64,000 nt of DNA from positions 448,001-512,000 of the forward strand of contig JBEPYN010000002.1 of assembly GCA_041641305.1 (NCBI GenBank), in the 5' to 3' direction. The stretch's first letter is position 1. Every line of letters starts with the position of its first letter. The notes below the pieces were generated by a model. The model had not been told where the DNA came from and made no database searches. It saw only the letters and a program-made list of their open reading frames with translations. This document shows, piece after piece, positions 1 through 16,417 of the stretch. The DNA comes from Nitrososphaerota archaeon (lineage in GTDB: Archaea > Thermoproteota > Nitrososphaeria_A > Caldarchaeales > Caldarchaeaceae). The translations under genes and the position numbers were made by a program.

Positions 1-659
1 GCGACATCGTCAAGACTGCAGGGCTTTGCCTCCCCAGCGCTGCAAGCTATCAGGCCTATGGCCGGTATGTAGGGGCCGGCGGCTGCGAAGGCCAAAGACG
101 CCGCCAGAAGCCAGCCGCCTATACCCTTCAGCTTCCCACCGGGAACCGCTAAAAGCGCCACACCTATCGGCGCAAGGGCGACCGCTAAGCTTCCGAAAAC
201 GGTCAGGAACACCATCAGAGTGAAGCCTGTGATTAACGTGACAGAGAGCGCGAGCCCCGGCAGAGAGGCGATTACGCTAAAGATGTTGGCTATCGCCGGC
301 CCCACTATAGGTATCAGAGCAGTACCCATTCCTATGCCCGTAATGATGGCCAAAATGGTGAAAGCCTTCATACCAAGCCCCATGTATATGTCAGGTAGTG
401 AAGCACAGGGCGTCCTCTCCGCAGAAATAGCTTGGGACACCATGCCGACTATGCCGTTGAAGGAGTTAGCCGTCCCGAGGATAGCTATGAAGCCGGCTGA
501 GACGAGGGCATAGCTGATAAGCTGTCCACCCCAAGAACTTCCATGACCTCCGGGTAGGGGCAGCTTGTGTAGGGCGAGTCCAATCCCATAGCCTATGGCT
601 ATAAGCGACCAAGCAACAGCCGCCCAGGCTCCAAGCCCGGAGTATTCGCAGGCTATCAC
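1..659 (-). CDS. Multi-pass membrane protein, CedA/VirB6-like (3' end outside window)
   Basis: Manual translation from GTG 659 (RBS GAGGTGG upstream) is open to the window edge: MIACEYSGLGAWAAVAWSLIAIGYGIGLALHKLPLPGGHGSSWGGQLISYAL..., many TM segments. The LPLP..WG..LI pattern resembles the CedA N-terminus. Confidence 0.65.
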   Translation of the reverse strand, partial: MIACEYSGLGAWAAVAWSLIAIGYGIGLALHKLPLPGGHGSSWGGQLISYALVSAGFIAILGTANSFNGIVGMVSQAISAERTPCASLPDIYMGLGMKAFTILAIITGIGMGTALIPIVGPAIANIFSVIASLPGLALSVTLITGFTLMVFLTVFGSLAVALAPIGVALLAVPGGKLKGIGGWLLAASLAFAAAGPYIPAIGLIACSAGEAKPCSLDDV

Positions 660-731
660 GGATAACCACCTCTAACCATAAACCATATTTTGAAAAAATA
701 TGGAGGGGGTTGGCCCCAACATGTTCACCTA

Positions 732-1175
732 CTAGAATCGGGGCACCTCCCATGGGCTGCTCGGCTGCGGCGGCGTGGTACCAAAGCCAGCGCCTGTCGT
801 GGCCACGGTTGCGGCAAAGTAGAGCAGGTAGACGCCTAGGGCTGCCAGCCCGGCGAGTATCAGGGCGCTGTCAAGAAGCTGGCCGCCGGCGTCCTTGGTT
901 CTATGGCTCCCCGTCGGCAGGAACTTTAATGCTAGACCTGAGCCCAGCAACGCAGCCGCTATCAGGAGCAGGAGCTGCCCAAACCCTGACACCGCGCCCT
1001 GAAACGTGTTGGCTATCGCCGCAGGCCCTCCTCCTTGCCCCGTCTGTTGAGCCATTGCAGCAAGCAGCAGGTGCGCGTTGGCAGCCGCTAGGCTTATGGT
1101 CGTGGTCGCGAGCCGCAGCCTACCGCTTCTCAGCCCTTTTACGAGGTTTGACCCTTTCCGGGTGTGGTGCTTCAT
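732..1175 (-). CDS. CedA1/TedC/VirB2-like pilin precursor
   Basis: Basic leader, then two hydrophobic helices joined by LALKFLPTGSHRTKDAGGQLLDSAL, similar to CedA1-type pilins. ATG 1175 lies ~35 bp from a TATA-like element. Confidence 0.6.
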   Translation of the reverse strand: MKHHTRKGSNLVKGLRSGRLRLATTTISLAAANAHLLLAAMAQQTGQGGGPAAIANTFQGAVSGFGQLLLLIAAALLGSGLALKFLPTGSHRTKDAGGQLLDSALILAGLAALGVYLLYFAATVATTGAGFGTTPPQPSSPWEVPRF

Positions 1176-1196
1176 GGCTTTCTCGAGACCATCCTC

Positions 1197-1588
1197 AAAT
1201 ACGATAATACTTAAGCTTTGGCTGAATCTGAACACTTTTGGTCGGCCACCTAGGTCGGCCAGTTTGGTCGGCCACTCTGGTCGGCCAAAGCTTATAAAGG
1301 AGCATTTTTCATATAACCCCGTTATGGCCGCTTCTTAATATAGCTATGTTCGCATTTTTCGCACTTGGCTCTATAAGCCTTTTATCACCATTTCTTTACT
1401 TTTTAATACTTTTTCAGGAATTTTTTGGTTATCTGGTATTTTTTTGTGTGCAAATTACCTTCCGCATTATTGATAAGCTTATCGGTATGGTTTTTCATGT
1501 TGGTCGGCCACATACTGTATATATTTTTGCTGGTCGGCCAGTTTGGTCGGCCACTCTGGTCGGCCAAAGCTTAAGTATTATCGTGTTT
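1197..1588. promoter_or_regulatory. Divergent control region: 26-bp inverted repeat containing BRE/TATA-like elements plus 8 operator/iteron-like boxes
   Basis: AAATACGATAATACTTAAGCTTTGGC (1197-1222) versus GCCAAAGCTTAAGTATTATCGTGTTT (1563-1588), one mismatch. AT-rich core between the repeat clusters. Confidence 0.7.
1239..1566 (+). repeat. Eight (T/A)GGTCGGCCA boxes, mostly at a 13-bp period
   Basis: Copies start at 1239, 1252, 1265, 1278 and 1501, 1531, 1544, 1557. The box is an imperfect palindrome (TGGYCGRCCA). Confidence 0.95.
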
Positions 1589-1589
1589 T

Positions 1590-2545
1590 AGGGTTGTTGA
1601 ATCCATGCGAGATTCGATGAAGCCTGCGGCTGGCTGAGCCGGGATGGGGCGTCAGCGGAGCGCTCCGACGACGGGGTCCGGCAGGTACCCCGTCGCCCGA
1701 GGGCTGGGCGCCGGCATGCCTGGCCCAAGGTCCCAGGCATTCGCATGGATGAATGCCGAAGCCGGCGATGGATAGGTGGTCCGTGACGGAGAGGGGCTCC
1801 CCGGAGGGTGAGAAAGCCACGCACCACACCCGGAAACCCCGCCCAGGGAACCCCGTAGAATAAACCATCAAGCCCCCATATATTGTTTACCGGGGGTCTC
1901 GGGTGGGGTATATGATGGGTGTCCCGTGAGCGGTCGGGGTCAGGGCCCGGGGTCATCCCGGGTGAGGCTGGATGGTCCAGCAGCCTGCGACGGGTAGCCT
2001 CGGGAGCTTGGCGTGGTCCACCAGAGTATATCCGGGGGATTGTGGGATGATGGCTGGGGCTGGCTCGGCTGCCCAAGGGGGCTGGGCAGGGCTTGGATGG
2101 TTCATCCAAGTGGGTGCTACCCCGCCGGAGCTGGTGCAGCCGGCTGGTGTCCATCCCTTGGACGGTTTATCCAAGGGGGTGACGCCGGCCCAACCCAGAG
2201 CCATTAGAATCACTAGAATGTCCTCTCCGTCTTCTCTGGGCTTCCGCGTCCGGGTTGAAGCCGCCCGCCCAGAAGCCGCTACAGATAACAGCCCCACACG
2301 GACCGGGGTGCGGCGAAGAGGCGGCTAAAGACCCGGGACAAGGGGGAGAACGGTTGGCTGATTCTCCCCGCCATCCCGGAGCCCACACCCGGGAAACTCT
2401 TCCCGGCAACGCCCGTTCACGCGGGCGGGGGGCTCAACAACACAATGCCCCCCGAAGATGCCAGGGAAACTCCGGAGGTGGGCTCTCCGGAATTGTCGTC
2501 CGGCGGGGGGAGACGCCCTCGATGGCCCGTCGGGGTTGCGAGGTG
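1590..2545 (+). ncRNA. Candidate long structured non-coding RNA or leader
   Basis: Starts just downstream of the TATA-like element at 1570-1577. Very GC-rich with nested stems (1601-1610/1741-1750, 1669-1677/1687-1695, 1716-1723/1733-1740, 2092-2110, 2155-2177, several in 2270-2535). No convincing ORF. Confidence 0.45.
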
Positions 2546-2561
2546 AAAGAGAAATGAAGAC

Positions 2562-2813
2562 ATGATGATTCTTTTGCTTGACGGCGGCTCTATCAGTGCA
2601 TCGATAGCAAGCGCTATAAGAGATGTGATTCTGTTGATTTTCGACATCCTGACCCCGATAATCAATATAATCGGGGTCGGCATGATTGCAATAGGGCTCC
2701 TGCTGGGGCTCGGACTCCGGCAGGAGTTCCTCGGCTTCCGATTAGCTATCGGCGGAGCGCTGGCTCTTCTAACTGTCCATGTTCTAGTGCCATTTTTATT
2801 GTCATTCATCTGA
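2562..2813 (+). CDS. Small hydrophobic pilin-like (VirB2/TrbC-like) membrane protein
   Basis: 83 aa, two to three hydrophobic helices, GAGGTGA upstream. Confidence 0.65.
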   Translation: MMILLLDGGSISASIASAIRDVILLIFDILTPIINIIGVGMIAIGLLLGLGLRQEFLGFRLAIGGALALLTVHVLVPFLLSFI

Positions 2814-2997
2814 CTTCTCTGACCTCTTAGCGACCCAAACTCCCCTCCTTTTTTTCCGTGGAGGCTTTCTCCCCCCTTTCGTATTGTCTGTTAGTGTCCG
2901 CCCTCGCGGGCGGAGCCTCCGGTCCCCGAGTCCGGGAGGCTTCCGCCCTTGTGGGGGAGAGGGGCGGAGAAGCCTCCCGGCGGGAGGGGTGAAAGAC

Positions 2998-3135
2998 ATG
3001 AGTGACTTCCAGAAGGTGTGGGGAAGCGAGGACAGCTTCTTAACCTACCAAGCCAAAACTCGGAGGTCATACCTCCGAGTCCGGGCTAGTAGGTGGGAGG
3101 AGCTCGTCCTCCATCTCCAGAACCAGCTCTTTTGA
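2998..3135 (+). CDS. Small hypothetical protein (45 aa)
   Basis: GGGGTGA RBS then ATG 2998; followed by a C-rich/T-run terminator-like tract. Confidence 0.5.
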   Translation: MSDFQKVWGSEDSFLTYQAKTRRSYLRVRASRWEELVLHLQNQLF

Positions 3136-3273
3136 CTGGCTGTGACAGCGCCAGCCAGCCAAAACACCCCTTCTTTTTTTCCTTCATATGCCCATACGCC
3201 TGAAACATGGCGTCCACCCCATAATCATTAAATGGGGTGGCGGGGGTGGTTGGCTGGCTCGCGCCTGGCTCCA

Positions 3274-3557
3274 TGCCCGTGTGCTGGGGCTGCATAGGCC
3301 TTGCCCGTGAGCGGGTCTATGCATCCTGCGCCCTATACACCGGCCACCCCCGCAGGGTCTTGCCCGTGTGCGGGCCCTGTGGTGAGCTTGCCCGTGAGCG
3401 GCTCCGGTGTGTGGGGGGCCTGCTTGCCCGTGTGCGGCGGCTGTCTGCAGGCAGGCGCTTGAGGCGGGTGACAGGGATGTCTCCTGCACCATGTGTTTGC
3501 CGGACTTGCCCGTGAGCGGTCGGCATACATGTGGGGAGCCTTCCTGCCCGTGCGCGG
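3274..3557 (+). repeat. Seven TGCCCGTG(A/T/C)GC(G/T)G direct repeats, irregular spacing
   Basis: Copies at 3274, 3302, 3361, 3389, 3425, 3507, 3545. Confidence 0.9.
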
Positions 3558-4199
3558 TTGGCTCCAGCGGGAGACACCCAAGCAGACGACATACAGACGA
3601 TGTTCAGAGGTTGTTCAGATGCTCCGCCAAGGAAGCTCTCGGAGCCATCTTATCCATGGGAGAGGCATGGTGTCTCTTCCATGGGCTTACTCTATCAAGG
3701 CGCCGTGGGGGTGCTTTGATGGAGAGGCTCCTAGCCCTGTTGGCGGAGACAGGTGACGAATAATGCTTCCGAATATTTCTGACGACATCCCCGAAGATTG
3801 ACACTGGTTCCATGGATTAAGCAGCCGATTCAACAATACCTAGGAGATACAGAGGTTCAAGGTATTCTGATAAGCAGTCGGATGACTCTAGATAACTACA
3901 ATGGTCTCAACAGGTCTCTAATAAACGCCGACAAAAACAGGTCAAAGACTATCAACGATACTTAGCACCTCCCTCGGCGGGCCAACCCCGGGAACAGGGG
4001 CTGGGAGGATGCGGAGACTCTCCCGGGCCGCATAGGCCCGCCTCCCCACAAAAACACGGGGAGGGAAGATGACCCTCCAAATCCTCCAAAAAATCCCCTG
4101 GCTCCCGGGGGTAAGGTCTGGATGGCGACCAGGGACTCCGCGGATGGGCGGGTCCGACCCGTCCGTGGAAACACTGCCCATCGGCCATATGGTGTGGGG

Positions 4200-4466
4200 G
4201 TGCAGAAGAAGTTGACAAGTAGTCTGCTGGTACCCGGATTGATAGCTCTGGCATTGGTCTATGGGATACAGTTGGTCAACGAGGGGCATCTGTTCGAAGG
4301 TGTTCTGTTGATGGTTGTAGGTATCTTTGGCGGAGTGTATGCTGAATACCTTCTGCAGAGATGGCGCATGAGTTACTGTGACTACTGCGGGGGCAAGATG
4401 AGGAAAGATGTCGGCGGACTATACTACTGCGACAGATGCAGACGCTTCGCTCCTCGACGGGCCTAA
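4200..4466 (+). CDS. Two-TM membrane protein with C-terminal Zn ribbon
   Basis: GTG 4200; two TM helices; CDYC...CDRC. Confidence 0.7.
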   Translation: MQKKLTSSLLVPGLIALALVYGIQLVNEGHLFEGVLLMVVGIFGGVYAEYLLQRWRMSYCDYCGGKMRKDVGGLYYCDRCRRFAPRRA

Positions 4467-4480
4467 GAGGGCGTGCAGGC

Positions 4481-5944
4481 ATGTGGGCTAGAGTTTTTGT
4501 GACACTGATAATCATCTTTGGCTTCGTAGGGTACGCTTGGTATGCAGCCATGTTAGCCTCTCAGAGATTGTTTGAACGTGGAATCATCAAAGAATCACCT
4601 ATGCCAACAATAGATGTCAAAACAATAACAACACAGGTGGCTCAGTACACAGGCATCGCTGTAACCCTGCTAATGATAGCCATTGTGGTAAAGAGGGTCG
4701 TTGAATCGGGTAGACTTCTGGGCGTCATTAAAGTCTCCGACCTTCAGAGGCATCTACTACTGCTTGGACCAACCGGTAGCGGCAAAACAAACACTGCTAA
4801 ACAGGCGATTGCCTTAGCCGTACGTCGTGGTGTCAGGGTAATCGTCATCGACTGGAAAGCCCTCTTCTCTCCGCCAGCGTTTTTCACGTCTCCCCAGCTC
4901 AGTTCCGCCGCATAGGGTTCGCGTGGAGCTTCTGGCGGAGCTGGGAGGGCCCAGAAAGGCGAGTACGTTAACTTCATCAAGGGAGCCTCCGTCGTCAGGA
5001 AACTCAACGTGTGGGACAACGGTGGTAGGTCGCCGAAGGAATGCGCTGTCCTCGCTGTCGAGACATTGAGAGAAATTACACGCGATATCGCAGATGTTTC
5101 ATCCGCCAGCGCAGCCCTTCTCCTGAGGGAGCTTGTAAAGCTCTACGGGAGAGGGGTGCCGAAGACATCCGACGTAGTTTCAGCTCTTGAGAAGTTCATA
5201 AACACCGCAATGGCGGAGCGGAGACTTGCCGAGGCGAATATGGCTTCTGCATTGCTTAGAAGGATGATGTGGCTCCAGATAGACGAGGAGAGGCCTGCGA
5301 AGAACATCATAGGCTCTGACAGGGTTGTTGTCTACGACTTATCAGAGCTCGGAAGCGTCTACCTGAAAACCATCTACAGCCTCAGCATCCTTTCAAAGAC
5401 CTACTACGGGGCCCTTAGACAGGGACAGTCCCAGAAACTAGAGACGCTGGTGATTGCAGAAGAGTGCCAAAACTACATACGTGGTAGGCGTTTCGACGAG
5501 CCTCCGTCGATTGGTGAGAGAATGGCTAACGAGCTGAGGGCCTACGGCGTCGGCATGGTCCTGATAAGCCCGGACCCTGTCCAGATACCCTGGCACCTCG
5601 CCAGAGACGTTGCAGCAGTAATATCCATAGGACTTCAGGCGATACCCGACAGCGTCAAGGACCTGTTGAGAACAATTGACCCCAAACAGGCGAAGAGAGT
5701 AATGATGGGTAAGAAGGCCTACGTCTATTACAACGGCAAACTGAAGACAGCCTCTCCGCCCAAGCCTCCAAAAGAAATAGAACTAAACGTTGACGTAAAA
5801 GAGGTGATTGAAGAGACTAAGCCTGAGGAGACTGTCGAGACTACTGCTACACAACCAGACAACTCTGGGGCAGAGGAGAGTGTTCAGACAATGCCGATAG
5901 AGCAGAAGGAGCCTTTGGAGGAGGCCCAGAGAGGCGTGAATTGA
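4481..5944 (+). CDS. Membrane-anchored HerA/VirB4/CedB-like ATPase, spliced join(4481..4857,4957..5944), 454 aa
   Basis: Two N-terminal TMs, Walker A GPTGSGKT, IDWKGEY restored by splicing, Walker B LVIAEECQN, ELRAYGVGM motif. Confidence 0.85.
4858..4956 (+). other. 99-nt archaeal-type pre-mRNA intron (bulge-helix-loop) in the ATPase gene
   Basis: Central helix CTGG 4852-55/CCAG 4951-54; AAA at 4856-58 and 4955-57; inner stems GCCCTCTT/GGGAGGGC and CTCCGCCAG/CTGGCGGAG; in-frame TAG at 4913-15. Confidence 0.85.
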
Positions 5945-5990
5945 TAGAGAGCCGGGGAAACCTCCTCTAAGGCTTGAAGAAGATGAAGAG

Positions 5991-6755
5991 ATGGTCGATG
6001 AAGACGAAGAGCAGGTGACAGAGGCCCCGCATGGGCGCATACCCCCACGGGAGGGAGTCCCGCCAAGATGATGTGGTGGTTGTGAGCGCCCCGGGAAAGC
6101 CGAACCACAGACACAACAAGAAAAAGCAGAAGAGGAGCAGGCAGATGAAACCACTGGTGGATTCCCCCTCCACGGCCACATGGTCGTGGAGGAGGCTTTC
6201 GCTGACGAGTCGGTTCTACGATGTGTTAGATGTGGGGCTTCGGCCTCGCTGACAGAGGCTACACAACTCATGGAGAAGCCTTGCCAAGAACCTCGAATGA
6301 CGCAGGATAACCTTCAGACCCGGTGCGGATGTGGACGGCCGGCGACAAAGCTTATGCCGTCATACGACCCGATAACCATGACGTTTAAAGACCTCTGCCT
6401 GTGCGACGGCTGTGCCAACGACTACCTCAACATCCTCAGGAGGTCAGGCCCAGCCCTAGGCAAGATGAGGGGGAGAATACCTGCGAACGGCTATTGGTTC
6501 AACCTTTACAACACCGTCTTCCAGGAGCTGGCTGGGACATACCCGTGCCCAGCCTGCGACCAGTTCTTCGACGACCTGTATTCCGCGGTCAAACACTTCG
6601 GCGAAAAACACATCGACAAGACAAAGACTCCAGAGGAGGTTGTCATAGACGGGGTTCCCGCCCTTAGGACATGGCAATACATATGGTGTACAAAATGTCT
6701 GAGGTTCTTCGAGAACGAGCGACATTTCCGTTCACATCTCCGAGACCATAGGTGA
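5991..6755 (+). CDS. Multi-Zn-finger protein with acidic N-terminus, spliced join(5991..6031,6098..6755), 232 aa
   Basis: One frame interrupted by a single TGA inside a BHB-bounded insert. CxxC motifs and C2H2-like fingers (CPAC...HFGEKH, CTKC...HLRDH). Confidence 0.75.
6032..6097 (+). other. 66-nt canonical BHB pre-mRNA intron
   Basis: Outer GGC 6023-25/GCC 6099-6101; central CCCG/CGGG; bulges CAT 6030-32 and AAA 6096-98; inner GGGCGC/GCGCCC; in-frame TGA at 6069-71. Confidence 0.8.
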
Positions 6756-7120
6756 AGCAGATGAAGTTCAGGGGAAAAATTTACAGGGATGGGGGAAGGC
6801 TGAAGCTGGTCTTTGACAAGCCCCTCCCGCGTGGGAGGGTGACGCTGCTGCTGACGAGGGTGGACGGAAAGGCTATGGAGTTGAAGTTCGATACAATGAT
6901 AACCAACAACGACCCCTATCGATTAAAGTGTCGGTTGCCACCGTTCCCGGAGCTGAGGCCCGGGGCGGTGGTCGAAGGAATAATCGAAGACGAGCTTAGA
7001 TGCCGCTGGTGCGGAGCCAAGTGCTCCGCACTCATCAACAACCTCTGCGACCATTGTTTCGAGGTATTCAACAGCCCCTACAAACCCCCTCTGGGAGAGG
7101 GTTGGGGAAGGCTGACGTAG
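6752..7120 (+). CDS. Hypothetical protein with C-terminal Zn finger
   Basis: GTGA overlap with the upstream stop; CRWC...CDHC. Confidence 0.7.
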   Translation: MKQMKFRGKIYRDGGRLKLVFDKPLPRGRVTLLLTRVDGKAMELKFDTMITNNDPYRLKCRLPPFPELRPGAVVEGIIEDELRCRWCGAKCSALINNLCDHCFEVFNSPYKPPLGEGWGRLT

Positions 7121-7285
7121 ACCACCGGCCAAAAACCCCAACCTCCGGGCGGTGACCCGGGGTAAAACCCGGGCGCCCCCGGCTATTTTTTCCAAGGGGC
7201 GTGTCCCGTCGGGAGCTTTCCCGGCGGGGCATGCGCCCCCTTGGCCGGGAGGCTCCCTAAGAGGGCCGCTCCGGAGGTCTAAAAA

Positions 7286-8221
7286 ATGGGCAACAACGAG
7301 AAGTGGACTCTGCCGGTGGTCTATGGAAACCGGAGGGTTCGTAGGGAGCTCATCGAGGTGCTGATGACTGTTGAAGAGTACAACGGATACACGGTGCTTT
7401 ACCTATGGTTCCACTTCCCCTACGACTGGTTTACAGCGCTAAAACCCTATGACTGGGAGCCTGTTGCAATAGCGTTCAAAGACAGCCGACCCGCCAGAAT
7501 CTTCTGGAGACCTCACTGGGCGCTTAGATGCACACGGCCTGTACTTGTGGATAAGAAGACTGTTGTCTTCTACATAAGCCCCATCAAGGGAAACGCTCCG
7601 AGATGCTCCCACTTCGATGTACTGCGGTCCATACTGGAAGACCCGTCGACCTACGGAATACCTTATCGAAAGTTCAAAGAGCTACCGCTGAAAAGCCTTC
7701 TGAAGGATGGGTGGCCGCCCGAGCACGAAGCCCGCGCCGAAAGCTTCAGAGAATACGTTCACCGAGGCCTTGAAGACATAAAAAGATGCGGGGGCGTATA
7801 CAGCGTGGTAATGGGCTTCTTCACAGACCTCCTCAGGGCCTACCTTATGGCTAGGAGGAGAAACCTCGACGGCTTCTACTATTATCTTAAGACGGCATGG
7901 GAAAACACCACAGAGAGGTTCAGGAGGAGCGGACCCGGCTACGAGATGTACAACCTACTCGTCGCCGTCAAGTACCTGCTGATGCTGCAGAAAGCGACTG
8001 GTGAAGGGCCGACGGAGCGGTTCTGGCGGGACATGGAAGGCGACCCTATCCTTCCCCCAGTGGTTAGAGCGTTGACAGGCCACATCTGGTACCCCATAGG
8101 GTTGCTGATAGCAGATGGGTATACGCCAGCCCAGCCGTTCAAAGACTTCGTTGATAAAAAATGGAGACAATGGTTCAGAGACGCCCTCAAAGCCTGCAAT
8201 AAACACGCAAACGAAGCCTAA
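7286..8221 (+). CDS. Hypothetical protein (weak NPP1/Vps62-like YLWFHF..DW..DWEPV motif)
   Basis: 311-aa ORF with GGAGGT RBS; family assignment is tentative. Confidence 0.75.
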   Translation: MGNNEKWTLPVVYGNRRVRRELIEVLMTVEEYNGYTVLYLWFHFPYDWFTALKPYDWEPVAIAFKDSRPARIFWRPHWALRCTRPVLVDKKTVVFYISPIKGNAPRCSHFDVLRSILEDPSTYGIPYRKFKELPLKSLLKDGWPPEHEARAESFREYVHRGLEDIKRCGGVYSVVMGFFTDLLRAYLMARRRNLDGFYYYLKTAWENTTERFRRSGPGYEMYNLLVAVKYLLMLQKATGEGPTERFWRDMEGDPILPPVVRALTGHIWYPIGLLIADGYTPAQPFKDFVDKKWRQWFRDALKACNKHANEA

Positions 8222-8584
8222 ACCCCCCACCTTTTTTCCAAGCCACGTGGTCCCGTCTGGGGTTTTTCCCTGGGCGGGGCCATGTGGCTCCGCTCCGGGG
8301 GAGGCTCCATGATGGGTTGCGGCGTCCAACGCCCCTGTGACAGTCCCCGAGGCGTGTGAGCGCGTAGGGGATGAGGGGCGAGGGCCTGGCCGCCTCCTCC
8401 ACGTGGAGGCCGGGGTTTGACCAAGCCCCTTTCCCTCGGGCGCCATGCAGAGGGTTTGGGAGAGGTGTGGCTGAACACCGTGTTCCTATTCCCCTCATCA
8501 GGGAGGGGTGTCGGGGCACGGCTAGTAGGCCATGCTTCCCCAAATTCCTCTGCGTGGTTGTCGGAAAAAGGGGCTGGGGAGGTG

Positions 8585-8695
8585 ATGGATATGAAAAACT
8601 GGAAGAGGTGTTTAAAATGCGAAGAGTTGAACGACATAAACGCAGCATTCTGCCATTACTGCGGTAGAACGTTAGAAGACGCGGAGGAGGTCTAA
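8585..8695 (+). CDS. 36-aa Zn-ribbon protein
   Basis: GGAGGTG RBS; CLKC...CHYC. Confidence 0.65.
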   Translation: MDMKNWKRCLKCEELNDINAAFCHYCGRTLEDAEEV

Positions 8696-9001
8696 ATGTA
8701 CCTAGTGAAGCTGCACACGGACCTTCGGGTACAACGACTCGTCTCGCGACCAGTGGAGATATTCTTTGGAGACTTGGTGACGACGATACCGAAGTCGGCT
8801 ATAGTCTGCGATGCATGCAACCAACAGGTCGCAGTCACGGAGCAGGACCTGAAAAACTTAGCGATGGGGTACGCTGTTGTAGACGGGGAATTCATCCTAG
8901 AGGTCGTATGTGAGGAATGCAGACAGCGCTACTTCGACGACATCCCGGTGTTCGACACATTAGAGGATGCCGAGGAGGTCTACGAGAAGAAGGTGAGGTG
9001 A
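8696..9001 (+). CDS. Zn-finger protein (paralog of next ORF)
   Basis: CDAC...CEEC; abuts the upstream stop. Confidence 0.75.
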   Translation: MYLVKLHTDLRVQRLVSRPVEIFFGDLVTTIPKSAIVCDACNQQVAVTEQDLKNLAMGYAVVDGEFILEVVCEECRQRYFDDIPVFDTLEDAEEVYEKKVR

Positions 9002-9003
9002 AG

Positions 9004-9285
9004 ATGGAGTTCCTAGTTTCGCTATTTACTGACAAAGAGCTCTTGAAAAAACTGCTGACCCCAAAGATTGTCATTAATGATTATGGTTACACGATTGTTC
9101 CGGCTAGGCTTGAATGCAGCCACTGTGAGCAGAAACTGCCTGTGAGGGAACCGGGAGGCTTTGCCCTCTTTGACACGGAGGGGACTCTATGGGAACTACT
9201 ATGTGAAGAGTGTAAGCAACGATTCCATTCAGGAACACCGGTTTACGAAACTTTGGACCAAGCTATTCCAAAGCAGAGGTGGTGA
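9004..9285 (+). CDS. Zn-finger protein (paralog of previous ORF)
   Basis: GAGGTGA RBS; CSHC...CEEC...PVYETLD. Confidence 0.75.
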   Translation: MEFLVSLFTDKELLKKLLTPKIVINDYGYTIVPARLECSHCEQKLPVREPGGFALFDTEGTLWELLCEECKQRFHSGTPVYETLDQAIPKQRW

Positions 9286-9287
9286 AG

Positions 9288-11088
9288 ATGGTCAGGGTAG
9301 TGGAGCTTCGGGAGGAGACTGAGCTTCTAGAAAAACTCAAGAATCGCTTTCCACACACTAGTCTACGTAGATATCAGGCCGACATCGCTAATAGGGTCTA
9401 CGAGAGCCTTTCCAACGGCTCTAGCATTCTTCTGGAGGGCCCTACGGGGCTGGGGAAGAGGCTATGAGGAGACTGTTTATGGGGGGTGGTTGGCTGGCTG
9501 GCGTCTCCGAGCCTCCTATACAGCCCCTGTATGGGCCGCGGTGAGCGCCTACGCGGAGGAGAAAGGTCTGAGGGTTCTATGGCTCACCCGGACGGCGTCC
9601 CAAGTAGCTCACATCGCCAGCGAGATAGGATGCATGCCCATCTACGGCCGCCGGCTTCTCTGTATCCATGAGACGGTTAGCAAGGTTGAGCAGAGACGGT
9701 TCAACGCGGCTTGTAGAGTTGTACGACTATCCGGACGTTGCTCATACTATCCCGGAAGGCCTAGCCAAATAAAGGCGAAGACTGTTGGAGAGATTAAAGA
9801 TGCCGGTAGGAAGTCGGTCACATGTCCCTACGAGCTTCAGCTGACATCGATGCCATACTCGACGTCGCTGGTCGCCACCCATAAACAGTTGTCTGTAGTT
9901 TCCTGGCTTTTGGCAAAATGGCGTTGGACCCGCGAGCGAACCATCTTGGTGCTCGACGAGTTCCAGAACATCTTGAAGACTGTTCTCGACCTCTCAAAAG
10001 ACGCCATAAGCCTGGCAACGCTCCACAAGGCCGCCGCAGAGGCAGCAAGGTATGGCTTCAGGGATATTTCCAGCAGTCTTTCAGAAGCTTATCAAAGATA
10101 CAAGGCGGTTGACGTTGACGAGGCTGAGGTAGAAAACCTACTGCCCAGCTTCGAAGAGCTCTTCGAGGCGGGGCAGGAGATACAGGCTAGGAAACTTGAG
10201 GAGAATGTTGTACCCGCCAGCTATGTGTTGAGCGTCGCAGACTTTAAGGCTGCTCTCGGCCAGCAGAAGCCCCTCCTAGTCAGGGAGGGTGAACGGGTTT
10301 GGCTGGAGGCGCTAGCAGACCCACGCGAGGAGCTTGAAAAGATTCTCGAAGGCTGGAGAACGGTCATAGCTATGACGGCCACGATGGATGCGGAACTCGT
10401 TGAACGCATGGCTTCAACCCAAGTGACGCTGTTGCGAGCAGGGTGGCCCTTCGACGATAATCTGAAGGCATACATTGTCAGCGGCCTTACGACGAGATAC
10501 AGGGACAGGGATGTGGAGCTCTATGAAGATGTCCGATGGCTTATAGAACAATCTCATGGAATGAGGACTCTCGTCTTCCTACCCAGCTATGAATTTGCTT
10601 CAATGATTCAGAAGAGGCTTAGCGACGCTATCGCCGAGCAACGGGGGATGACGCAGGAACAGGTGGAAGCCACGGCCGCTGAATTCGCGGAGGGTGGAAA
10701 AACGCTTTTAGCCGTCTTCGGTGGAAGGCTGGCAGAGGGCATCAACCTCCAAGCCGACTTGGTTATGCTGGTGGGCATACCATTCGCGAAACCATCACCG
10801 CGAACAAAGAAGCTCGAGGACAAGCTTGAGAATGTCTTTGGGAGCAGTGACCTTTCCCGGCTACATGGACTAGTTTTACCGGCCCTCTTTGCCGCCGTGC
10901 AGGCCGCCGGTAGGGCTGTCAGAGGCCCCAATGATAGGGCTCTGGTCCTGCTCGTCGACGACAGATACCGCCGTTTGACAAAACACTTGCCCAGATGGTT
11001 CAGAGACTTGGTCTCAGATAAGCCGGTCAAGCTCACAGATGTTCCCATTCTATTGGATGAGTGGTTGTCATGGATGAAGAGCGTTTGA
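9288..11088 (+). CDS. XPD/Rad3/DinG-family Fe-S DNA helicase, spliced join(9288..9458,9520..11088), 579 aa
   Basis: Q motif RRYQ, Walker A GPTGLGKT restored by splicing, four Fe-S cysteines, LDEFQN, GRLAEGIN, QAAGRAVRG. Confidence 0.9.
9459..9519 (+). other. 61-nt canonical BHB pre-mRNA intron in the helicase Walker A motif
   Basis: Outer GGGGCTG 9446-52/CAGCCCC 9521-27; central GGGA/TCCT; bulges AGA 9457-59 and ATA 9518-20; inner GGCT/AGCC and GGAGAC/GTCTCC. The insert causes a stop and a frameshift. Confidence 0.92.
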
Positions 11089-12512
11089 GACACGTTCTTG
11101 AACGCATCCGCAGACAGAACATCAACTACGTGAAGCTCAGAGGACTTGTCAGCCGATTCATGACTCTCAACCCCGAGGCAGACCCAGAAGCAATAGATTG
11201 GACAGCCGTCTACGATGACTCCCTAAGCTACGACGAACTCGTCGAAGCATTTGAAAAAGAGTATCCCATGTACCGGTGGCGTGAGACAGCTCCCGCAGAT
11301 GACAAACAAATCGAGGACATGCTGGTGAACCATATCCTCAACCAGGTCGAGGACCTTACAGAAGAGTCTCTCAAGTCGCTCGTCAATGCCTTGGAGGAGC
11401 GGCTGGAGGCTCTACGGCAGGCCGAAACCCCGGCATCTCCGACGGAGCAACAACCCGAACATACACAGATGCAACATCCTCAGCACCAACCGCCGACTAT
11501 GACTGAAAACATACAACAGCCAGCGCCACAGCCGAAGGTAACCCTCAAGCTTCTCGCATCCTACCCCTTCCTAGCGGAGGCTAGGGAGGTGGTTAGGGGC
11601 GTGAGCTTCGAGGGTTTACCCAGGGCGGTATACAAAAGAGCCCGGGAGAGGCTAATGGAGGCTCTCGAACGGGGAGAGCTGGGGGTTGTTCCCCGGCTCG
11701 ATGAACCGTTCGTGGAGCTTCTCTCCTTTCCCGTGGCGAAGGCCGTTGTCCACACAATCGACGACGACTGGCTGAAAAGGCGATGGGCCCTCGCAGAGTC
11801 AGCGAGGGTCGAGAGGCTTCTACTGAAGGAGAATGCGGATGTCTCAGAATGGCTCCTCTCCCGGCTACTTGAGGTCAGGCGAGAGGGAGAGGAGTATGCG
11901 CTGAGGTTCACTGATTACCTAAAGCTTGCTGAAGGCCTTACCACCGATATCTCATGGAAGCTAGTAAACCAAAAACTGCATCGAGGCTGGGTCTTCATAA
12001 CAAAGACTCGTCTCATACGACTCATCAGACAAAAACTCTACCAACTTCTCTATAACAGCTTCCAGCAGACGCCCAAACTGACAAAAATACCTCAACAAAT
12101 CGCCGAAATGGTCGCCGACATAACCGAGGAGCTCCAAAAAATCAAAGCCCGGGCAGGACGGGTCACACCCGTCAAAGGCGCAATACCGCCCTGTATGAAG
12201 ACGATTAGCGATAGGCTGGCGGACGCCAGCCACACAGAGAACTTCGTATACGCCGCCTACTTGGTCAATACGGGATACAGCATCGAGGAAATCGTTGATG
12301 TCTTTAGGAAGAGAGCTGACTTCGACGAGAGGATAGCACGGTATCAGATAGAGCATATAGCGGGGCTGAGGGGGAGCCGTGTGAAATACCGGCCACCTTC
12401 ATGCTCCCGCATGCGGGAACTCGGACTATGCATCGAGAACGGAAGACTATGCCCACCGAATATCCACAACCCACTACAATACCGACCTAGACAACAGCGA
12501 CAACCCACCTAA
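11070..12512 (+). CDS. DNA primase large subunit (PriL)-like protein with ~150-aa N-terminal extension
   Basis: LASYPFL, W.LVNQ.L..GWV, and an Fe-S C-terminus PPCM...DFDERIARYQIEHIAG...YRPPSC...GLC...C...NPL. Confidence 0.85.
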   Translation: MDEERLRHVLERIRRQNINYVKLRGLVSRFMTLNPEADPEAIDWTAVYDDSLSYDELVEAFEKEYPMYRWRETAPADDKQIEDMLVNHILNQVEDLTEESLKSLVNALEERLEALRQAETPASPTEQQPEHTQMQHPQHQPPTMTENIQQPAPQPKVTLKLLASYPFLAEAREVVRGVSFEGLPRAVYKRARERLMEALERGELGVVPRLDEPFVELLSFPVAKAVVHTIDDDWLKRRWALAESARVERLLLKENADVSEWLLSRLLEVRREGEEYALRFTDYLKLAEGLTTDISWKLVNQKLHRGWVFITKTRLIRLIRQKLYQLLYNSFQQTPKLTKIPQQIAEMVADITEELQKIKARAGRVTPVKGAIPPCMKTISDRLADASHTENFVYAAYLVNTGYSIEEIVDVFRKRADFDERIARYQIEHIAGLRGSRVKYRPPSCSRMRELGLCIENGRLCPPNIHNPLQYRPRQQRQPT

Positions 12513-12667
12513 ACACCCCCTATTTTTTCTTTCCCCGATAGGAGGCCCTTTCCGCCGCTCTCCGGCGGGAGGGGTTCCTCCTGTCGGGGAGAGGTGGACT
12601 CAGGCCTCCCGGGAAAGCCATGACATTAAGTCATGGTACCGGACCCGGCCACCGGGGTAAAGGTGGC

Positions 12668-13066
12668 ATGGACTCGTCTCCCGAGAGGCTGTTTGATGAC
12701 TCGGGAGCGCCCGCGGTTCCAAGGCCCGCCGCGGGCGACAAGTGCCAGGGCCTGAGTTCGGGGGGTGGTTCGACTTATGAGCGTCTGCTGGAGCGCTACG
12801 GCGGCTTCTTCGAGGAGCTTGGCTATGGTTGTCTCGCCAGCTTTAAGCATCTGATTGAGCAAGTGGAGGTGACTATCGATACGGCGACATCTAATGATGT
12901 CAACCTGTTTGCTAAGCTCCATGTGCTAAAGTCTGCGAGGGCCTCGGTAGAAGTATTTACGGAGTATTATAGTCGATTCCTGCCACCTACTGTCGTCAAT
13001 AACCTGCGAGCTGACCTGACATTTCTGCTTGAGCGTGCTGAGGAGGTGGTGTTGACTTTTGGCTGA
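12668..13066 (+). CDS. Hypothetical protein
   Basis: AGGTGG RBS, ATG 12668; overlaps the MTase start. Confidence 0.65.
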   Translation: MDSSPERLFDDSGAPAVPRPAAGDKCQGLSSGGGSTYERLLERYGGFFEELGYGCLASFKHLIEQVEVTIDTATSNDVNLFAKLHVLKSARASVEVFTEYYSRFLPPTVVNNLRADLTFLLERAEEVVLTFG

Positions 13067-13970
13067 ATTCATAGACCCCACCATTCTGAAAGGGTGGTGG
13101 GGTTCCGAGGAATACCAGAGGCTGTTATCCTTCGAGCCGGAAAATGCAGGTGACTACTATCGGTTACCATTCGCCAAATACAACGAGCTCTTTCCGTTCA
13201 TCAAAGTCAAGATTGAGCACCCTGCAGTGATGAACCCATACTTGGCGATTTTCCTTTGGCGGCGTTACGTAAAACCAAATGATGTAATAATCGACCCTAT
13301 GGCTGGGATAGGGGGTACACCCGATATGTAGGGGCCCAGCTTTATCCCAGCCATAGCCTGCAGATTGACCAATGATAACCACTTAATCCTCAACGATATT
13401 GAGTCGACTTACGCCAGACTCTCTGAGGAGCTTCTTTCGGAGATGCTGGTCGTTACTAATCACAGCACCCTGCTGGACGTCTACAACGTAAACGCTGCCT
13501 CTCTTTATGAACTTCTTAGACCAAGAGGACTTGCTGGAGGCGTACGGAGGAGGGTTATTATTACCTCTCCTCCGTATGGCCTCCTCAGGCCCTGTGATAG
13601 CTTCAGCCCGAGGTTTGGCAGACTGACGGTAACTTCCGCCGGTAACCTTAGCGTGATAACCGGTAAACACTTTAGGGCGGCTTGGCTGGGCGTGCTGACT
13701 TCGATGTATCTCTGTCTCAACCAGTTCCATAGAAACCGTGACTTGGCTGTGATTGTCCTCAAAAACTTCAAGAATAACAATGTGGAAAAGGCTGTTGGAA
13801 AAAACCTCGTCAATTTAACGGTTGAACTCGCGGAGTTCGTTGGATTCAAACATCTCGAGACGCTGAAGTTCAAGATTTCAGGCAGCCACTTCGCCAGATA
13901 CCACGACATCAAGCAACATGTCCATGACCTCTGGCACGAATATGCGCTGGTCTTCCGCAAGGTGGTGTAG
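13059..13970 (+). CDS. Amino (N4-C/N6-A) DNA methyltransferase, spliced join(13059..13318,13340..13970), 296 aa
   Basis: HPA motif, SAM-binding IIDPMAGIGGT, catalytic IITSPPY. Both ORF halves are in one frame, separated by a TAG inside a BHB insert. Confidence 0.85.
13319..13339 (+). other. 21-nt canonical BHB pre-mRNA intron next to the SAM-binding motif
   Basis: 16-bp outer helix CTATGGCTGGGATAGG/TTTATCCCAGCCATAG; central GGGT/GCCC; bulges ACA 13317-19 and AGC 13338-40; inner CCC/GGG; in-frame TAG at 13329-31. Confidence 0.9.
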
Positions 13971-14819
13971 ATGAGGATTTTCGCTGATGTTCATAGGAAA
14001 AAGGATGACAGCGGCTACCGCATCACATATACAACTGACGGCGAAGTCTTTAAACACGTTGATTCTCCGATGGACATCCCCGCGCAGGCAGGAGACGAGG
14101 TATTCGTTGACACTATACCGATAATCCACACCGACGCATTCATAGAGCTACTGAGGAGAGGTGTAGAGGTCTATTATCTACGAAGACTCTCACTTATTGA
14201 AAAGACAAGACAGAGACTGGGGATACCGAAGTCAGCCAAAAATGACGTAAAAATTCTGATGAACATTGAGAAGAAATGGTTCAAGAGAGTTGACGAGGAC
14301 TTCTTGAGCATGCGTCAGATTATTTCGGCGTTTAGGAGATTGGATAGAGACAAACAGAGGTTGGAGAACCAGTCTAAGGACGTGCCGGAGATTACAAAGG
14401 AAAGCTTCAGGAGGCTCATAGACCATACAGAGGAGGAGAAGTTGGTAATAGCCAAACCAATAGTAGAAGAAGCAGAGAAGAGGCTTTCGTTATTTAGAGT
14501 AGTAGCGCAGGAGCTGGGTGTTGCAGACGATAATCATTCGATGGGAAGAGAGGCACTGGCCGAACTACTGACATACGTAGACTTCAGCAAATCCTTCAGA
14601 AAAGTCAGAGAGTATCTCGGACTCTTCAGAAACCCGAAGACCAAAAACATGAGATACAGCCACAGTTCTAGGAAGGCGTTGAACCGTCTAACAATGTCGC
14701 TGACGGGCAGAGAGCCAAAAGCAGAAGACGAGGAAACAATAGCTTTCAAGATATGGCTGACGTTCCGACGGGAAAACCAAAAGAGGCTGGCGGGCATACC
14801 GGCCCAACAACAGGGATAA
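13971..14819 (+). CDS. IS110-related RuvC + coiled-coil + Nop-like protein (TasR-like)
   Basis: IFADVH, VFVDT and KSAKNDV resemble the IS110 RuvC acidic motifs. F.KSFRKVREYLGL...RYSHSSRKAL resembles the IS110/Nop C-terminal domain but lacks the (Q/S)SG serine loop. Confidence 0.7.
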   Translation: MRIFADVHRKKDDSGYRITYTTDGEVFKHVDSPMDIPAQAGDEVFVDTIPIIHTDAFIELLRRGVEVYYLRRLSLIEKTRQRLGIPKSAKNDVKILMNIEKKWFKRVDEDFLSMRQIISAFRRLDRDKQRLENQSKDVPEITKESFRRLIDHTEEEKLVIAKPIVEEAEKRLSLFRVVAQELGVADDNHSMGREALAELLTYVDFSKSFRKVREYLGLFRNPKTKNMRYSHSSRKALNRLTMSLTGREPKAEDEETIAFKIWLTFRRENQKRLAGIPAQQQG

Positions 14820-14910
14820 AACCCATAGGCCGGTATGTCATGTTATAAAACGAACTGGCTCTCTTGCCAGTTATGTCCCAACCTTTAACGACCGGCCTCT
14901 TTTTGGGTTT
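14819..14910 (+). ncRNA. Candidate dual-guide RNA (tigRNA/bridge-like)
   Basis: Stem AGGCCGGT/ACCGGCCT, apical stem AACTGGC/GCCAGTT, and a symmetric internal loop with two copies of ATGTC-N9-AACG; outer AAACCCA/TGGGTTT. Confidence 0.65.
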
Positions 14911-14948
14911 CCTAGGTGTTGTTTGGTGGTTGCCTGCCAGCCAACCAT

Positions 14949-14990
14949 CCCCCTATTTTTCCCTTCTTTTTGTGATGTTTTTTGTTTATA
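14949..14990 (+). terminator. Archaeal oligo-T terminator-like tract at the element end
   Basis: CCCCCTATTTTT followed by further T runs; similar tracts at 2843-2855, 3165-3180, 7185-7191, 8223-8237 and 12514-12528. Confidence 0.55.
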
Positions 14991-15017
14991 TCATGGGTGT
15001 GGGGTGTTTTCGGGGGT

Positions 15018-15460
15018 ATGGTCTCTGAGCTTGGTTATGGTGGGTTTGTTGCGGAGGTGTTGAGTGGGCTTGGTGTGGGGTTGGGTGATGAGGTTGAGGT
15101 TGTGAGAAATGGGCTGCGGCTCCGCGGGTTTGTGATTGCGCGTTACGAGTATGGGGCGCCTGATGTTCTGGTTTTGAAGCTTTCGAACGGCTACAACATA
15201 GGTGTGCGCATCGATGCCTCTACACAGATACGTAAGCTCTCCTCAGCCGTCGCGCCATCTTTCAACCCACCTCCACCCGCCCAGCCTCGGGAAAACCTGC
15301 CCCGCGTCATGATTGCCAACACAGGCGGCACCATAGCCAGCAGAATAGACTACAGGACAGGAGGAGTTAAACCCACTCTCACTGCATCGGACCTCGTCAG
15401 CATAGTTCCCGAAATCGCGGAGAAAGCAAACGTCTCAACCGAGATTCTGATGCAGGTTGT
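15018..15460 (+). pseudogene. gatD: 5' fragment of Glu-tRNA(Gln) amidotransferase subunit D
   Basis: VLKLSNGYNIG and TGGTIASRIDYRTGGV are GatD motifs. Similarity stops at ~147 aa, where the next gene's promoter begins. Confidence 0.85.
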
Positions 15461-15490
15461 GAGTATGTTTATAACATCATCCAACACAGC

Positions 15491-16417
15491 GTGTCCATGG
15501 TTGTTTTCTTTGGAGCAGTCATTCCACGCTATGACGTGGATTTTAGAAAAGTTGTGGACACGGTTTTGATGTTTGAGGAGCTTGGTTTTTCCTCGCTCTG
15601 GGTAACTGACCACATGCAGCCCCGCCGCGCCTCACGCATCCTCGAGTCATGGACGCTTCTCTCAGCGCTTGCGCCTGTGACGGATGCGAGACTGGGAACG
15701 GTTGTCCTATGCTCATGCTACCGCCACCCCTCTCTTCTCGCGAAAATGGCCGCAACCCTCGACATCATCAGCAACGGACGCCTCGAGCTCGGCGTTGGAA
15801 CAGGGTCGGAGCCACAGGCCGAGGAGCTAGAGGCCCTTGGAATGGAGACATGGAAGCCCAAAGAAAGAATTCCACGTCTGCGAGAATATGTTGAGGTGCT
15901 GCGGCTGCTGCTTTCCGACGGCGACCCCGCCACCTACCAAGGCAGGTTCTACACGCTCAAAAAAGCGATGCGCAACACGCCCACGGTCCAGAAACCACAT
16001 CCACCCATATGGATAGGTGCGCGAAAAGGGAAAATGGTTAAGCTGGCGGCCGAGATAGGCGATGGCTGGAACTTCTACGGCGAAACACTGACAGAATACA
16101 GAGAGGCCGTCAAACATTTTGACGAAGAATGCGACAAGCTAGGCAGAAGACCGAGCAAAGCAATCTTCACAAACCTCCTAATCTACAAGGATGAAACGGA
16201 CAAGAGGGAGAAGATAAAGCACCTCGGCGCCTTCGAAACCGAGGAACAAGCCCTGCGCAAAACCTTTACACTCCTACACGGAACCCCTGACCAAGTCATC
16301 AAACAGGTTGAGGAGCTACAGAGTCTCGGCGTCGGACTCGTCATCCTACGAGACATGGACCCAGAAACATCAAGCATAAAAGACTTCGCCAAAGAAATCA
16401 TCCCATCCTTCAAATGA
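15491..16417 (+). CDS. LLM-class (luciferase-like, probably F420-dependent) oxidoreductase
   Basis: LWVTDH, RHPSLLAKMAATLD..SNGRLELGVG, PVQKPHPPIWIG-like motif. Confidence 0.9.
   Translation: MSMVVFFGAVIPRYDVDFRKVVDTVLMFEELGFSSLWVTDHMQPRRASRILESWTLLSALAPVTDARLGTVVLCSCYRHPSLLAKMAATLDIISNGRLELGVGTGSEPQAEELEALGMETWKPKERIPRLREYVEVLRLLLSDGDPATYQGRFYTLKKAMRNTPTVQKPHPPIWIGARKGKMVKLAAEIGDGWNFYGETLTEYREAVKHFDEECDKLGRRPSKAIFTNLLIYKDETDKREKIKHLGAFETEEQALRKTFTLLHGTPDQVIKQVEELQSLGVGLVILRDMDPETSSIKDFAKEIIPSFK

Follow-up and report, generated by a model that had tools for sequence, protein, structure and literature searches.

A RuvC/Nop-fold protein and its dual-spacer RNA in Caldarchaeales mobile elements, with spacers that match the split insertion site

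Introduction

Homing endonucleases and TnpB of IS200/IS605 elements are nucleases aimed at the empty allele, and insertion destroys the site. TnpB needs TnpA to move, and its guide comes from the adjacent flank by read-through. In IS110/IS1111 elements such as IS621 and ISCro4, a protein with a RuvC-coiled coil-Nop/Tnp fold works with an element-encoded RNA that has two guides, addressed to opposite strands with a short overlapping core (PMC11208160; PMC11208158). In TIGR systems, TasR acts with a symmetric RNA unit in which two spacers of 8-12 nt lie between paired boxes, and a rule for the position of the TasR cuts has been given (PMC12045711). The TIGR papers name the natural targets and the origin of the spacers as open questions (PMC12045711; 10.64898/2026.09.09.750476).

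Here we describe a family of archaeal mobile elements that resembles both groups. The window analysed is a stretch of 64,000 nucleotides, C2:448,001-512,000 of a 1.66-Mb, 99%-complete genome (G000), and the genome of a relative (G009) was the main comparison for empty sites and synteny. From 128 further loci, 84 distinct guide pairs were parsed. An initial annotation, made from the letters of the window alone, had proposed a compact RNA-guided nuclease or binder carried as cargo. In literature searches that covered few subscription journals, no description of the family was found.

Distribution of the family

Named homologues of the 282-aa protein come from Candidatus Caldarchaeum and its relatives. 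A family profile matched 22 of 300 genomes sampled across the phylum, all belonging to one order, and no homologue was found in the viral contigs searched. The family resides in chromosomes of this archaeal order and is multi-copy: G000 has four full paralogues at 58-64% identity plus one fragment, and about 40 loci occur in one other genome. In G000, every full copy is followed by the same RNA structure with different 9-mers. A broken element at G000 C2:514,717-515,014 is reduced to a left-end remnant and 38 initial codons; it has no RNA and adjoins a tRNA-synthetase-like gene.

The protein

The open reading frame begins directly past the stop of a methyltransferase-like frame; the initial annotation had called the two translationally coupled.

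13059..13970, + strand: methyltransferase-like gene, divided between two frames (Pfam, weak at E 0.02)
13971..14819, + strand: RuvC/coiled-coil/Nop-fold protein, TasR- and IS110-like, 282 aa (structure model and alignment)

Pfam and solved-structure sequence searches with the protein and its alignments returned nothing significant, so the link to TasR and IS110 is structural only. The AlphaFold model has a pLDDT of 92. Compared with TasR and IS110, as the initial annotation had suggested, it shows the RuvC-coiled coil-Nop architecture, with TasR (9MTY) as the best match (Z 15.0, rmsd 4.3, 244 residues), followed by ISCro4 (Z 12.8 over 254 residues) and TasH (Z 12.2); the next match drops to Z 8.1. 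Foldseek returned IS621, ISCro4 and TasR at E 3e-6 to 2e-4 (IS621: E 2.8e-6, TM 0.59), with Nop5 a weak match at rank 46.

D6, D47 and D92 are invariant in 81 homologues and H8 is nearly so. The IS110-type RuvC motifs that had been reported are present at these three aspartates, but not as a full DEDD set: the tetrad reads D6/D47/A89/D92, its third carboxylate being Ala in this protein's own clade and Asp in distant relatives (residue correspondence to IS621 was set by motif, not by superposition). Distant homologues of 340-361 aa at G026 L227:888-1910 and L228:1096-2181 carry an N-terminal extension and Asp at the third position. The serine loop, which the annotation had called missing, is absent throughout the homologues, where about 10 residues without a conserved Ser separate the flanking motifs, and the protein has no match to the IS110 C-terminal domain, PF02371. 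In IS621, the counterpart of the lost aspartate holds the serine loop and the other three aspartates form the metal site (PMC11208158); by these roles, the joint loss of aspartate and serine loop would be coherent with an active, hydrolytic site.

Conversely, the protein could be catalytically dead, and open or bend the site while recruiting another enzyme of the element or host to break and join the DNA. A89 in place of the third carboxylate fits such a role, the stem-loop TasR proteins characterised so far are catalytically dead (10.64898/2026.09.09.750476), and Faure et al. speculate that Tas proteins aid integrases (PMC12045711). We nevertheless consider a pure binder improbable, given the invariance of the three aspartates, the coherence of the paired losses with an active site under the IS621 roles (PMC11208158), and the existence of mini-elements of 1.3-2.5 kb that encode nothing else intact.

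Modelling supports a homodimer through the coiled coil, with a score of 0.74 against 0.00 for the best control, pLDDT of at least 86, and runs agreeing in at least 92% of contacts. The mark used for this score was reached by 20 of 30 solved homodimers and by 1 of 23 monomers. Since like complexes have already been solved, the model speaks for likeness only.

The predicted guide RNA

Downstream of the gene lies one symmetric, predicted dual-guide RNA. Its stem-loop, with two identical boxes around two 9-mers, is where the initial annotation had placed it, and the predicted RNA is longer than first described, forming a rod from about 14785 to 14942 that covers the last 11 codons of the ORF.

14785..14942, + strand: predicted guide RNA, a long rod over the end of the ORF with one symmetric internal loop (folding, covariation)
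14827-14834/14891-14898, + strand: outer stem (sequence)
14835-14839 = 14873-14877, + strand: 5-nt box, two identical copies (sequence)
14840..14848, + strand: spacer A, exact reverse complement of the right half-site 15469-15477 (sequence match)
14849-14852 = 14887-14890, + strand: 4-nt box, two identical copies (sequence)
14853-14872, + strand: inner hairpin (sequence)
14878..14886, + strand: spacer B, identical to the left half-site C2:346,790-346,798, outside the window (sequence match)
14943..14984, + strand: C-run and pyrimidine tail, the last conserved part of the element, putatively terminator-like

Folding z-scores were -5.65 for 14815-14910 and -7.01 for 14775-14965, and no shuffle equalled them. 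RNAalifold favoured an alternative helix over the outer stem, and the guide-form structure was therefore counted separately. Across 36 homologous RNAs, 92% of its cells are paired and 11 pairs show compensatory changes, mostly in the inner hairpin; the pairing beats all 500 shuffles and all slid controls, a figure that relatedness among the sequences can inflate. The boxes of one half change in step with those of the other, and they pair across the loop. The check proposed with the annotation, that boxes be conserved and 9-mers variable among homologues, holds in more than 80 loci: over the 84 guide pairs, spacer positions 1-6 vary freely and positions 7-9 are A/T-biased.

An Rfam search with the RNA gave no match. 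The folded RNA has no second internal loop of the donor-binding kind, and the island element has no further box pair, though a donor signal may exist in some other form. No repeated guide array was seen, the four G000 copies and the homologous loci that were read each having a single unit.

The alternative helix joins approximately 14795-14803 with 14829-14837, so that the end of the ORF pairs with the first box and the guide-form outer stem is excluded. It covaries as well (at one pair, 30 A-U and 6 G-C, none broken), and it is possible that it acts as a folding switch tied to translation.

The target site and the 117-kb island

Comparison with G009 places the gene at the right-hand end of a very large insertion.

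1..15467: right-hand 15.5 kb of the island C2:346,801-463,467; genes for an XPD-like helicase and a primase large subunit lie here
14985..15463, + strand: gatD promoter with the 5′ end of the gene, a captured copy (87% to native C1:748,289) that starts at the TATA box
15468..15477, + strand: right half-site of the split 16-mer, carrying its positions 7-16 (comparison with G009)
15468-15472, + strand: 5-nt A/T core, found at the left junction too
15491..16417, + strand: host oxidoreductase gene, whose own TATA box is the target; host synteny resumes here

The oxidoreductase is presumably of the LLM class, as read from its sequence. The target is a 16-mer in which spacer B and the reverse complement of spacer A share 2 nt. 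In G009, this 16-mer is intact upstream of the same host gene and contains its TATA box. In G000, it is split, with its left part at C2:346,790-346,800 and its right part from C2:463,468; the reverse complement of spacer A stands at 15469-15477, where the captured gatD fragment ends. The insert between the half-sites is 116,672 bp long, and 5 nt are duplicated. On either side of the insert, G000 and G009 are collinear, and G009 runs through the break point without interruption. Of the insert itself, three samples of 20 kb were compared, and none had an orthologous block in G009.

These results alter several parts of the initial annotation. It had found no left end; there is one 116 kb upstream, outside the window. 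A nearby left end was also considered, and within 30 kb only 1-mismatch matches to spacer B were present. Its tandem 18-mer target does not occur in the genome: neither this nor five other spacer arrangements came closer than 3 mismatches. Its expectation of a promoter-like target was correct, since the 16-mer holds the TATA box of a host gene. The cargo reading, a TIGR-like nuclease or repressor aimed at an 18-bp host or virus promoter, has in its favour the fold, the symmetric dual-spacer RNA and the many targets that are TATA boxes. The comparison with the empty site contradicts this reading, and we assign it only a minimal probability, in view of the absence of the 18-mer from G000, the identity of the real 16-mer with the split insertion site of the very element that carries the gene (likewise in ten elements), the viral contigs without homologues, and one site that lies inside a coding region.

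Island genes include HerA/VirB4-like ATPases, a secretion ATPase, ParB, helicases, ribonucleotide reductase and a restriction-modification methylase, a set typical of a conjugative-type island; the DNA between the half-sites is foreign. The island is known from one assembly and may be composite. Between window positions 4436 and 13970, some of its genes (ATPase, helicase, methyltransferase) are each spread over adjacent frames. Window positions 1201-1222 and 1562-1583 form a long inverted repeat around repeated 10-nt motifs and an A/T-rich stretch, and may serve the island as a replication or transfer origin. At the left end, C2:346,801-347,073 (L193:801-1073) includes a tpiA-like 5′ end, 84 bp long and reaching as far as the TATA box, together with a tRNA-like piece that ARAGORN did not call.

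Searches of G000 for a tyrosine integrase, a resolvase and the IS110 C-terminal domain found none, with controls detected under a loose first filter. No tyrosine recombinase at all, not even a Xer-like one, matched PF00589 in G000, which the loose first filter may explain. A non-autonomous IS110 derivative moved in trans by a complete IS110 recombinase, or insertion of the island by a conventional integrase with the guide match arising later, could be invoked from the IS110-like overlap of the guides at the core and the position of the RNA downstream of the gene, as in IS1111 (PMC11208160). Apart from the missing enzymes, IS110 recombination gives precise ends and those found here are ragged, so that we hold this explanation to be very unlikely.

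Guides and insertion sites across the family

Matches between guide and insertion site extend well beyond the island. Ten elements in two near-complete genomes, ranging from 1.3 to 117 kb, each lie inside the site that their own guide spells, and in 10/10 all 12 variable guide positions match the local flanks; a random guide finds a perfect site in G000 0.16% of the time. In G000, element K4 (C1:439,870-454,531, L224) closes a 14.7-kb insert that splits a 15-mer intact in G009 and carries a type III-A CRISPR-Cas system (Cas10, Csm2, RAMPs, Cas6 and an APE2256-family protein) with repeat arrays. K3 (C1:515,550-531,650, L225) closes an insert of 16.1 kb that interrupts a coding region and contains defence genes of restriction type, namely GmrSD, an Eco57I-like methylase and an SNF2/PLD helicase; a related G009 element lies at roughly this site. 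For K2, the empty site in G009 aligns to the 15-mer without gaps but has diverged too far for exact confirmation. Six G009 elements stand between their own half-sites, and five of those empty sites are recognisable in G000. A seventh, at the K3 site, has no recognisable half-sites, and an eighth is without a parsable guide.

Draft genomes give the same arrangement. Among 71 loci, exact 9-nt matches downstream numbered 12 for spacer A and 21 for spacer B, against 0.2 and 0.8 in controls, and those upstream 8 (A) and 3 (B) against 0.6. Wherever both halves were found at 8-9 nt among the 71 guide pairs, they were always in the split arrangement; about half of the draft-genome loci showed no junction within the available flanks. 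Intact targets with a 3-4-nt centre were found for 8 of 84 guides versus 1 of 252 shuffled pairs. Spacer tails covary as a 2-nt overlap would have them (14/22 vs 6.0), and one of these pairs has a G/C-containing core. In this element's own clade, intact sites measure 15-16 bp, while the junctions of one other subgroup suggest 17-18 bp, and the A/T core is often a TATA box. Taken at the level of sequence, these matches make it almost certain that the guide specifies the insertion site.

Ends, junctions and captured scars

Fixed termini are absent, with ends that are ragged on both sides, captured flanks and truncations. Junctions lie 67-1000 nt past the RNA, and the upstream distance is variable. 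The duplication varies in length from minus 1 to 7 nt. In 9 of 10 elements, target positions 1 to 8-12 remain on the left of the insert, and the right flank resumes at positions 4-9. Junctions thus placed bracket the 3′ overhang at positions 6-10 or 6-11 that the TasR rule predicts for this target (PMC12045711), which is suggestive and falls short of proof: because the duplication varies and A/T-rich cores extend matches by chance, the junction data do not fix the cut positions.

The mini-elements of 1.3-2.5 kb encode only the protein and RNA intact. Those of G009 are internal deletions consisting of a left-end gene remnant, the last 45 nt of the methyltransferase gene, and the protein and RNA. 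The remnant derives from the gene that is intact at the island's left end, and by this make-up both ends of the 117-kb island belong to a single type of element. Many mini-elements retain the final ~45 nt of the methyltransferase gene, where the ribosome-binding site likely lies.

Host gene starts of 60-500 bp, to judge by their sequences those of gatD, tpiA and guaB, are often present at both ends. Such captured pieces begin at a 6-nt A/T run in 5 of 9 cases, against a background of 4.6%. They are read, the gatD copy at 14985..15463 included, as probable scars of earlier insertion sites. Microhomology between captured fragments and target overhangs was not evident at the four junctions inspected, where short fillers were seen instead. 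A 5′ fragment of gatD is also present at the right end of G009 L174; it seems to be an independent capture, which points to the gatD promoter having been used more than once.

A model for insertion and its alternative

Our preferred model is that the protein cuts the site and repair completes the insertion, which we think probable. By sequence comparison, the two spacers are complementary to opposite strands of a site of 15-16 bp and share 2-3 nt at the A/T core. The RNA, once made, would be bound by a protein dimer, and the complex would cut both strands hydrolytically through D6/D47/D92, leaving 5-6-nt 3′ overhangs if the TasR rule applies. Element DNA without fixed ends, including 60-500 bp of earlier flanks, could then be joined or copied into the break by repair functions. 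Capture in a staggered break would duplicate the centre of the site over a varying length of 3-7 nt, and insertion, by splitting the site, would leave the carrier immune. After transfer, the element could home into empty alleles. Protein and RNA together behave as the target-selection, and probably the cutting, module of this family of Caldarchaeales mobile elements, the choice of target having good support.

A different chemistry has been weighed, in which strand transfer is serine-independent: the RuvC site would use the 3′-OH of the element and not water, as an RNA-steered integrase resembling DDE transposases. An RNase H-like fold with three invariant aspartates, multi-copy spread (~40 loci in one genome), duplications of the target centre and the lack of any other recombinase found in G000 are all compatible with this. 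A transposase, however, needs defined donor ends, and here there are ragged ends, unrelated host pieces, fillers and truncations; the duplication is not constant in length, and the RNA has no donor loop. We regard strand transfer as unlikely, though less so than a pure binder. Since the two guides spell the site that the island has split, the island looks like an undescribed case of RNA-programmed insertion of very large DNA in hot-spring archaea.

Changes of guide

Guides change far faster than the rest of the element. Among copies that are 94-98% identical over 450 nt, 11/11 pairs have changes in both spacers, affecting about 4 of 6 positions. Of all 168 spacers, 160 are distinct. Earlier-site scars share a half-site (5-6 of 6 positions) with a present spacer in 4 of 7 cases, where 0.8 are expected (P 0.005, in a test that was post hoc and includes two scars from one element). 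At the island locus, the gatD site matches spacer A at 5/6 and spacer B at 1/6 positions. The simplest reading of these sequences would be stepwise retargeting, in which one spacer is kept and the other is replaced to match the new flank. General sharing of one spacer among relatives was considered and is not seen pairwise in close copies, where both differ; evidence for it comes from the scars and six shared spacers, and the differences imply that several hops probably separate even close copies. That no mismatched guides occur in the ten elements leans toward spacer copying or strict coupling to movement.

More tentatively, the system might amount to self-reprogramming integration, in which a 282-aa protein and its RNA insert up to 117 kb at a programmable 15-16-bp site and each hop rewrites a spacer. 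It would do so with neither a donor motif nor a recombinase, the new spacer being written from the new flank; both parts of this idea we consider conceivable and rather doubtful. If true, it would provide a spacer-acquisition route for the TIGR/IS110 class.

Comparison with described systems

The family supplies natural targets for a TasR-like system, which are missing from the TIGR work, and can be viewed as a living intermediate between bridge recombinases and TIGR nucleases. The inserts that end in its module include a conjugative-type island of 117 kb and defence islands of 15-16 kb with type III-A CRISPR-Cas or restriction-modification systems. Nested scars and fast-changing spacers make the acquisition and reprogramming of dual-spacer guides directly testable, and a thermostable, programmable cutter or integrator of 282 aa would have practical interest.

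With TnpB, the likeness ends at the guides, which in this family both lie inside the element and far from the junctions, and must therefore change separately. Box C/D sRNP Nop5 shares the Nop fold and a symmetric two-guide RNA architecture (PMC11213020); unlike it, the present family has a DNA target and retains RuvC carboxylates, and the structural match is weak.

IS110/IS1111 elements (PMC11208160; PMC11208158; PDB 8WT6, 8WT9, 9T56) share the RuvC-coiled coil-Nop/Tnp fold, the element-encoded guide RNA (downstream of the ORF as in IS1111), the two guides to opposite strands with a short overlapping core, and interruption of the guided site by the element. In contrast to them, the family has no catalytic serine loop and an Ala as third carboxylate, its RNA has no donor-binding loop, and fixed ends and a constant core are replaced by duplications that vary between 3 and 7 nt and by captured flanks. 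Cargo reaches 117 kb, and guides differ between nearly every copy.

TIGR-TasR of the stem-loop type (PMC12045711; 10.64898/2026.09.09.750476; PDB 9MTY) is the best structural match at Z 15.0, and has in common with the family a serine-less RuvC-Nop protein, predicted here to dimerise through its coiled coil, a symmetric RNA unit with two spacers (9 nt here, 8-12 nt in TIGR) between paired boxes, and a cut position that fits the junctions. On the other hand, the family has a single guide unit and not an array, and its boxes are not the TIGR C and D motifs. Its spacers overlap and covary, whereas TIGR spacers abut and do not; its intact sites are 15-16 bp as opposed to an 18-bp target with abutting halves; its natural target is known, being its own insertion site; and it occurs in chromosomes of one archaeal order rather than viral contigs. 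Within the Nop-domain RNA-guided superfamily, the family is thus outside IS110 by its lack of the serine and of a donor loop and by its imprecise ends, and outside TIGR-Tas by its lack of an array, its boxes and its overlapping spacers; its predicted mode of action combines the target half of an IS110 bridge system with chemistry of the TasR kind.
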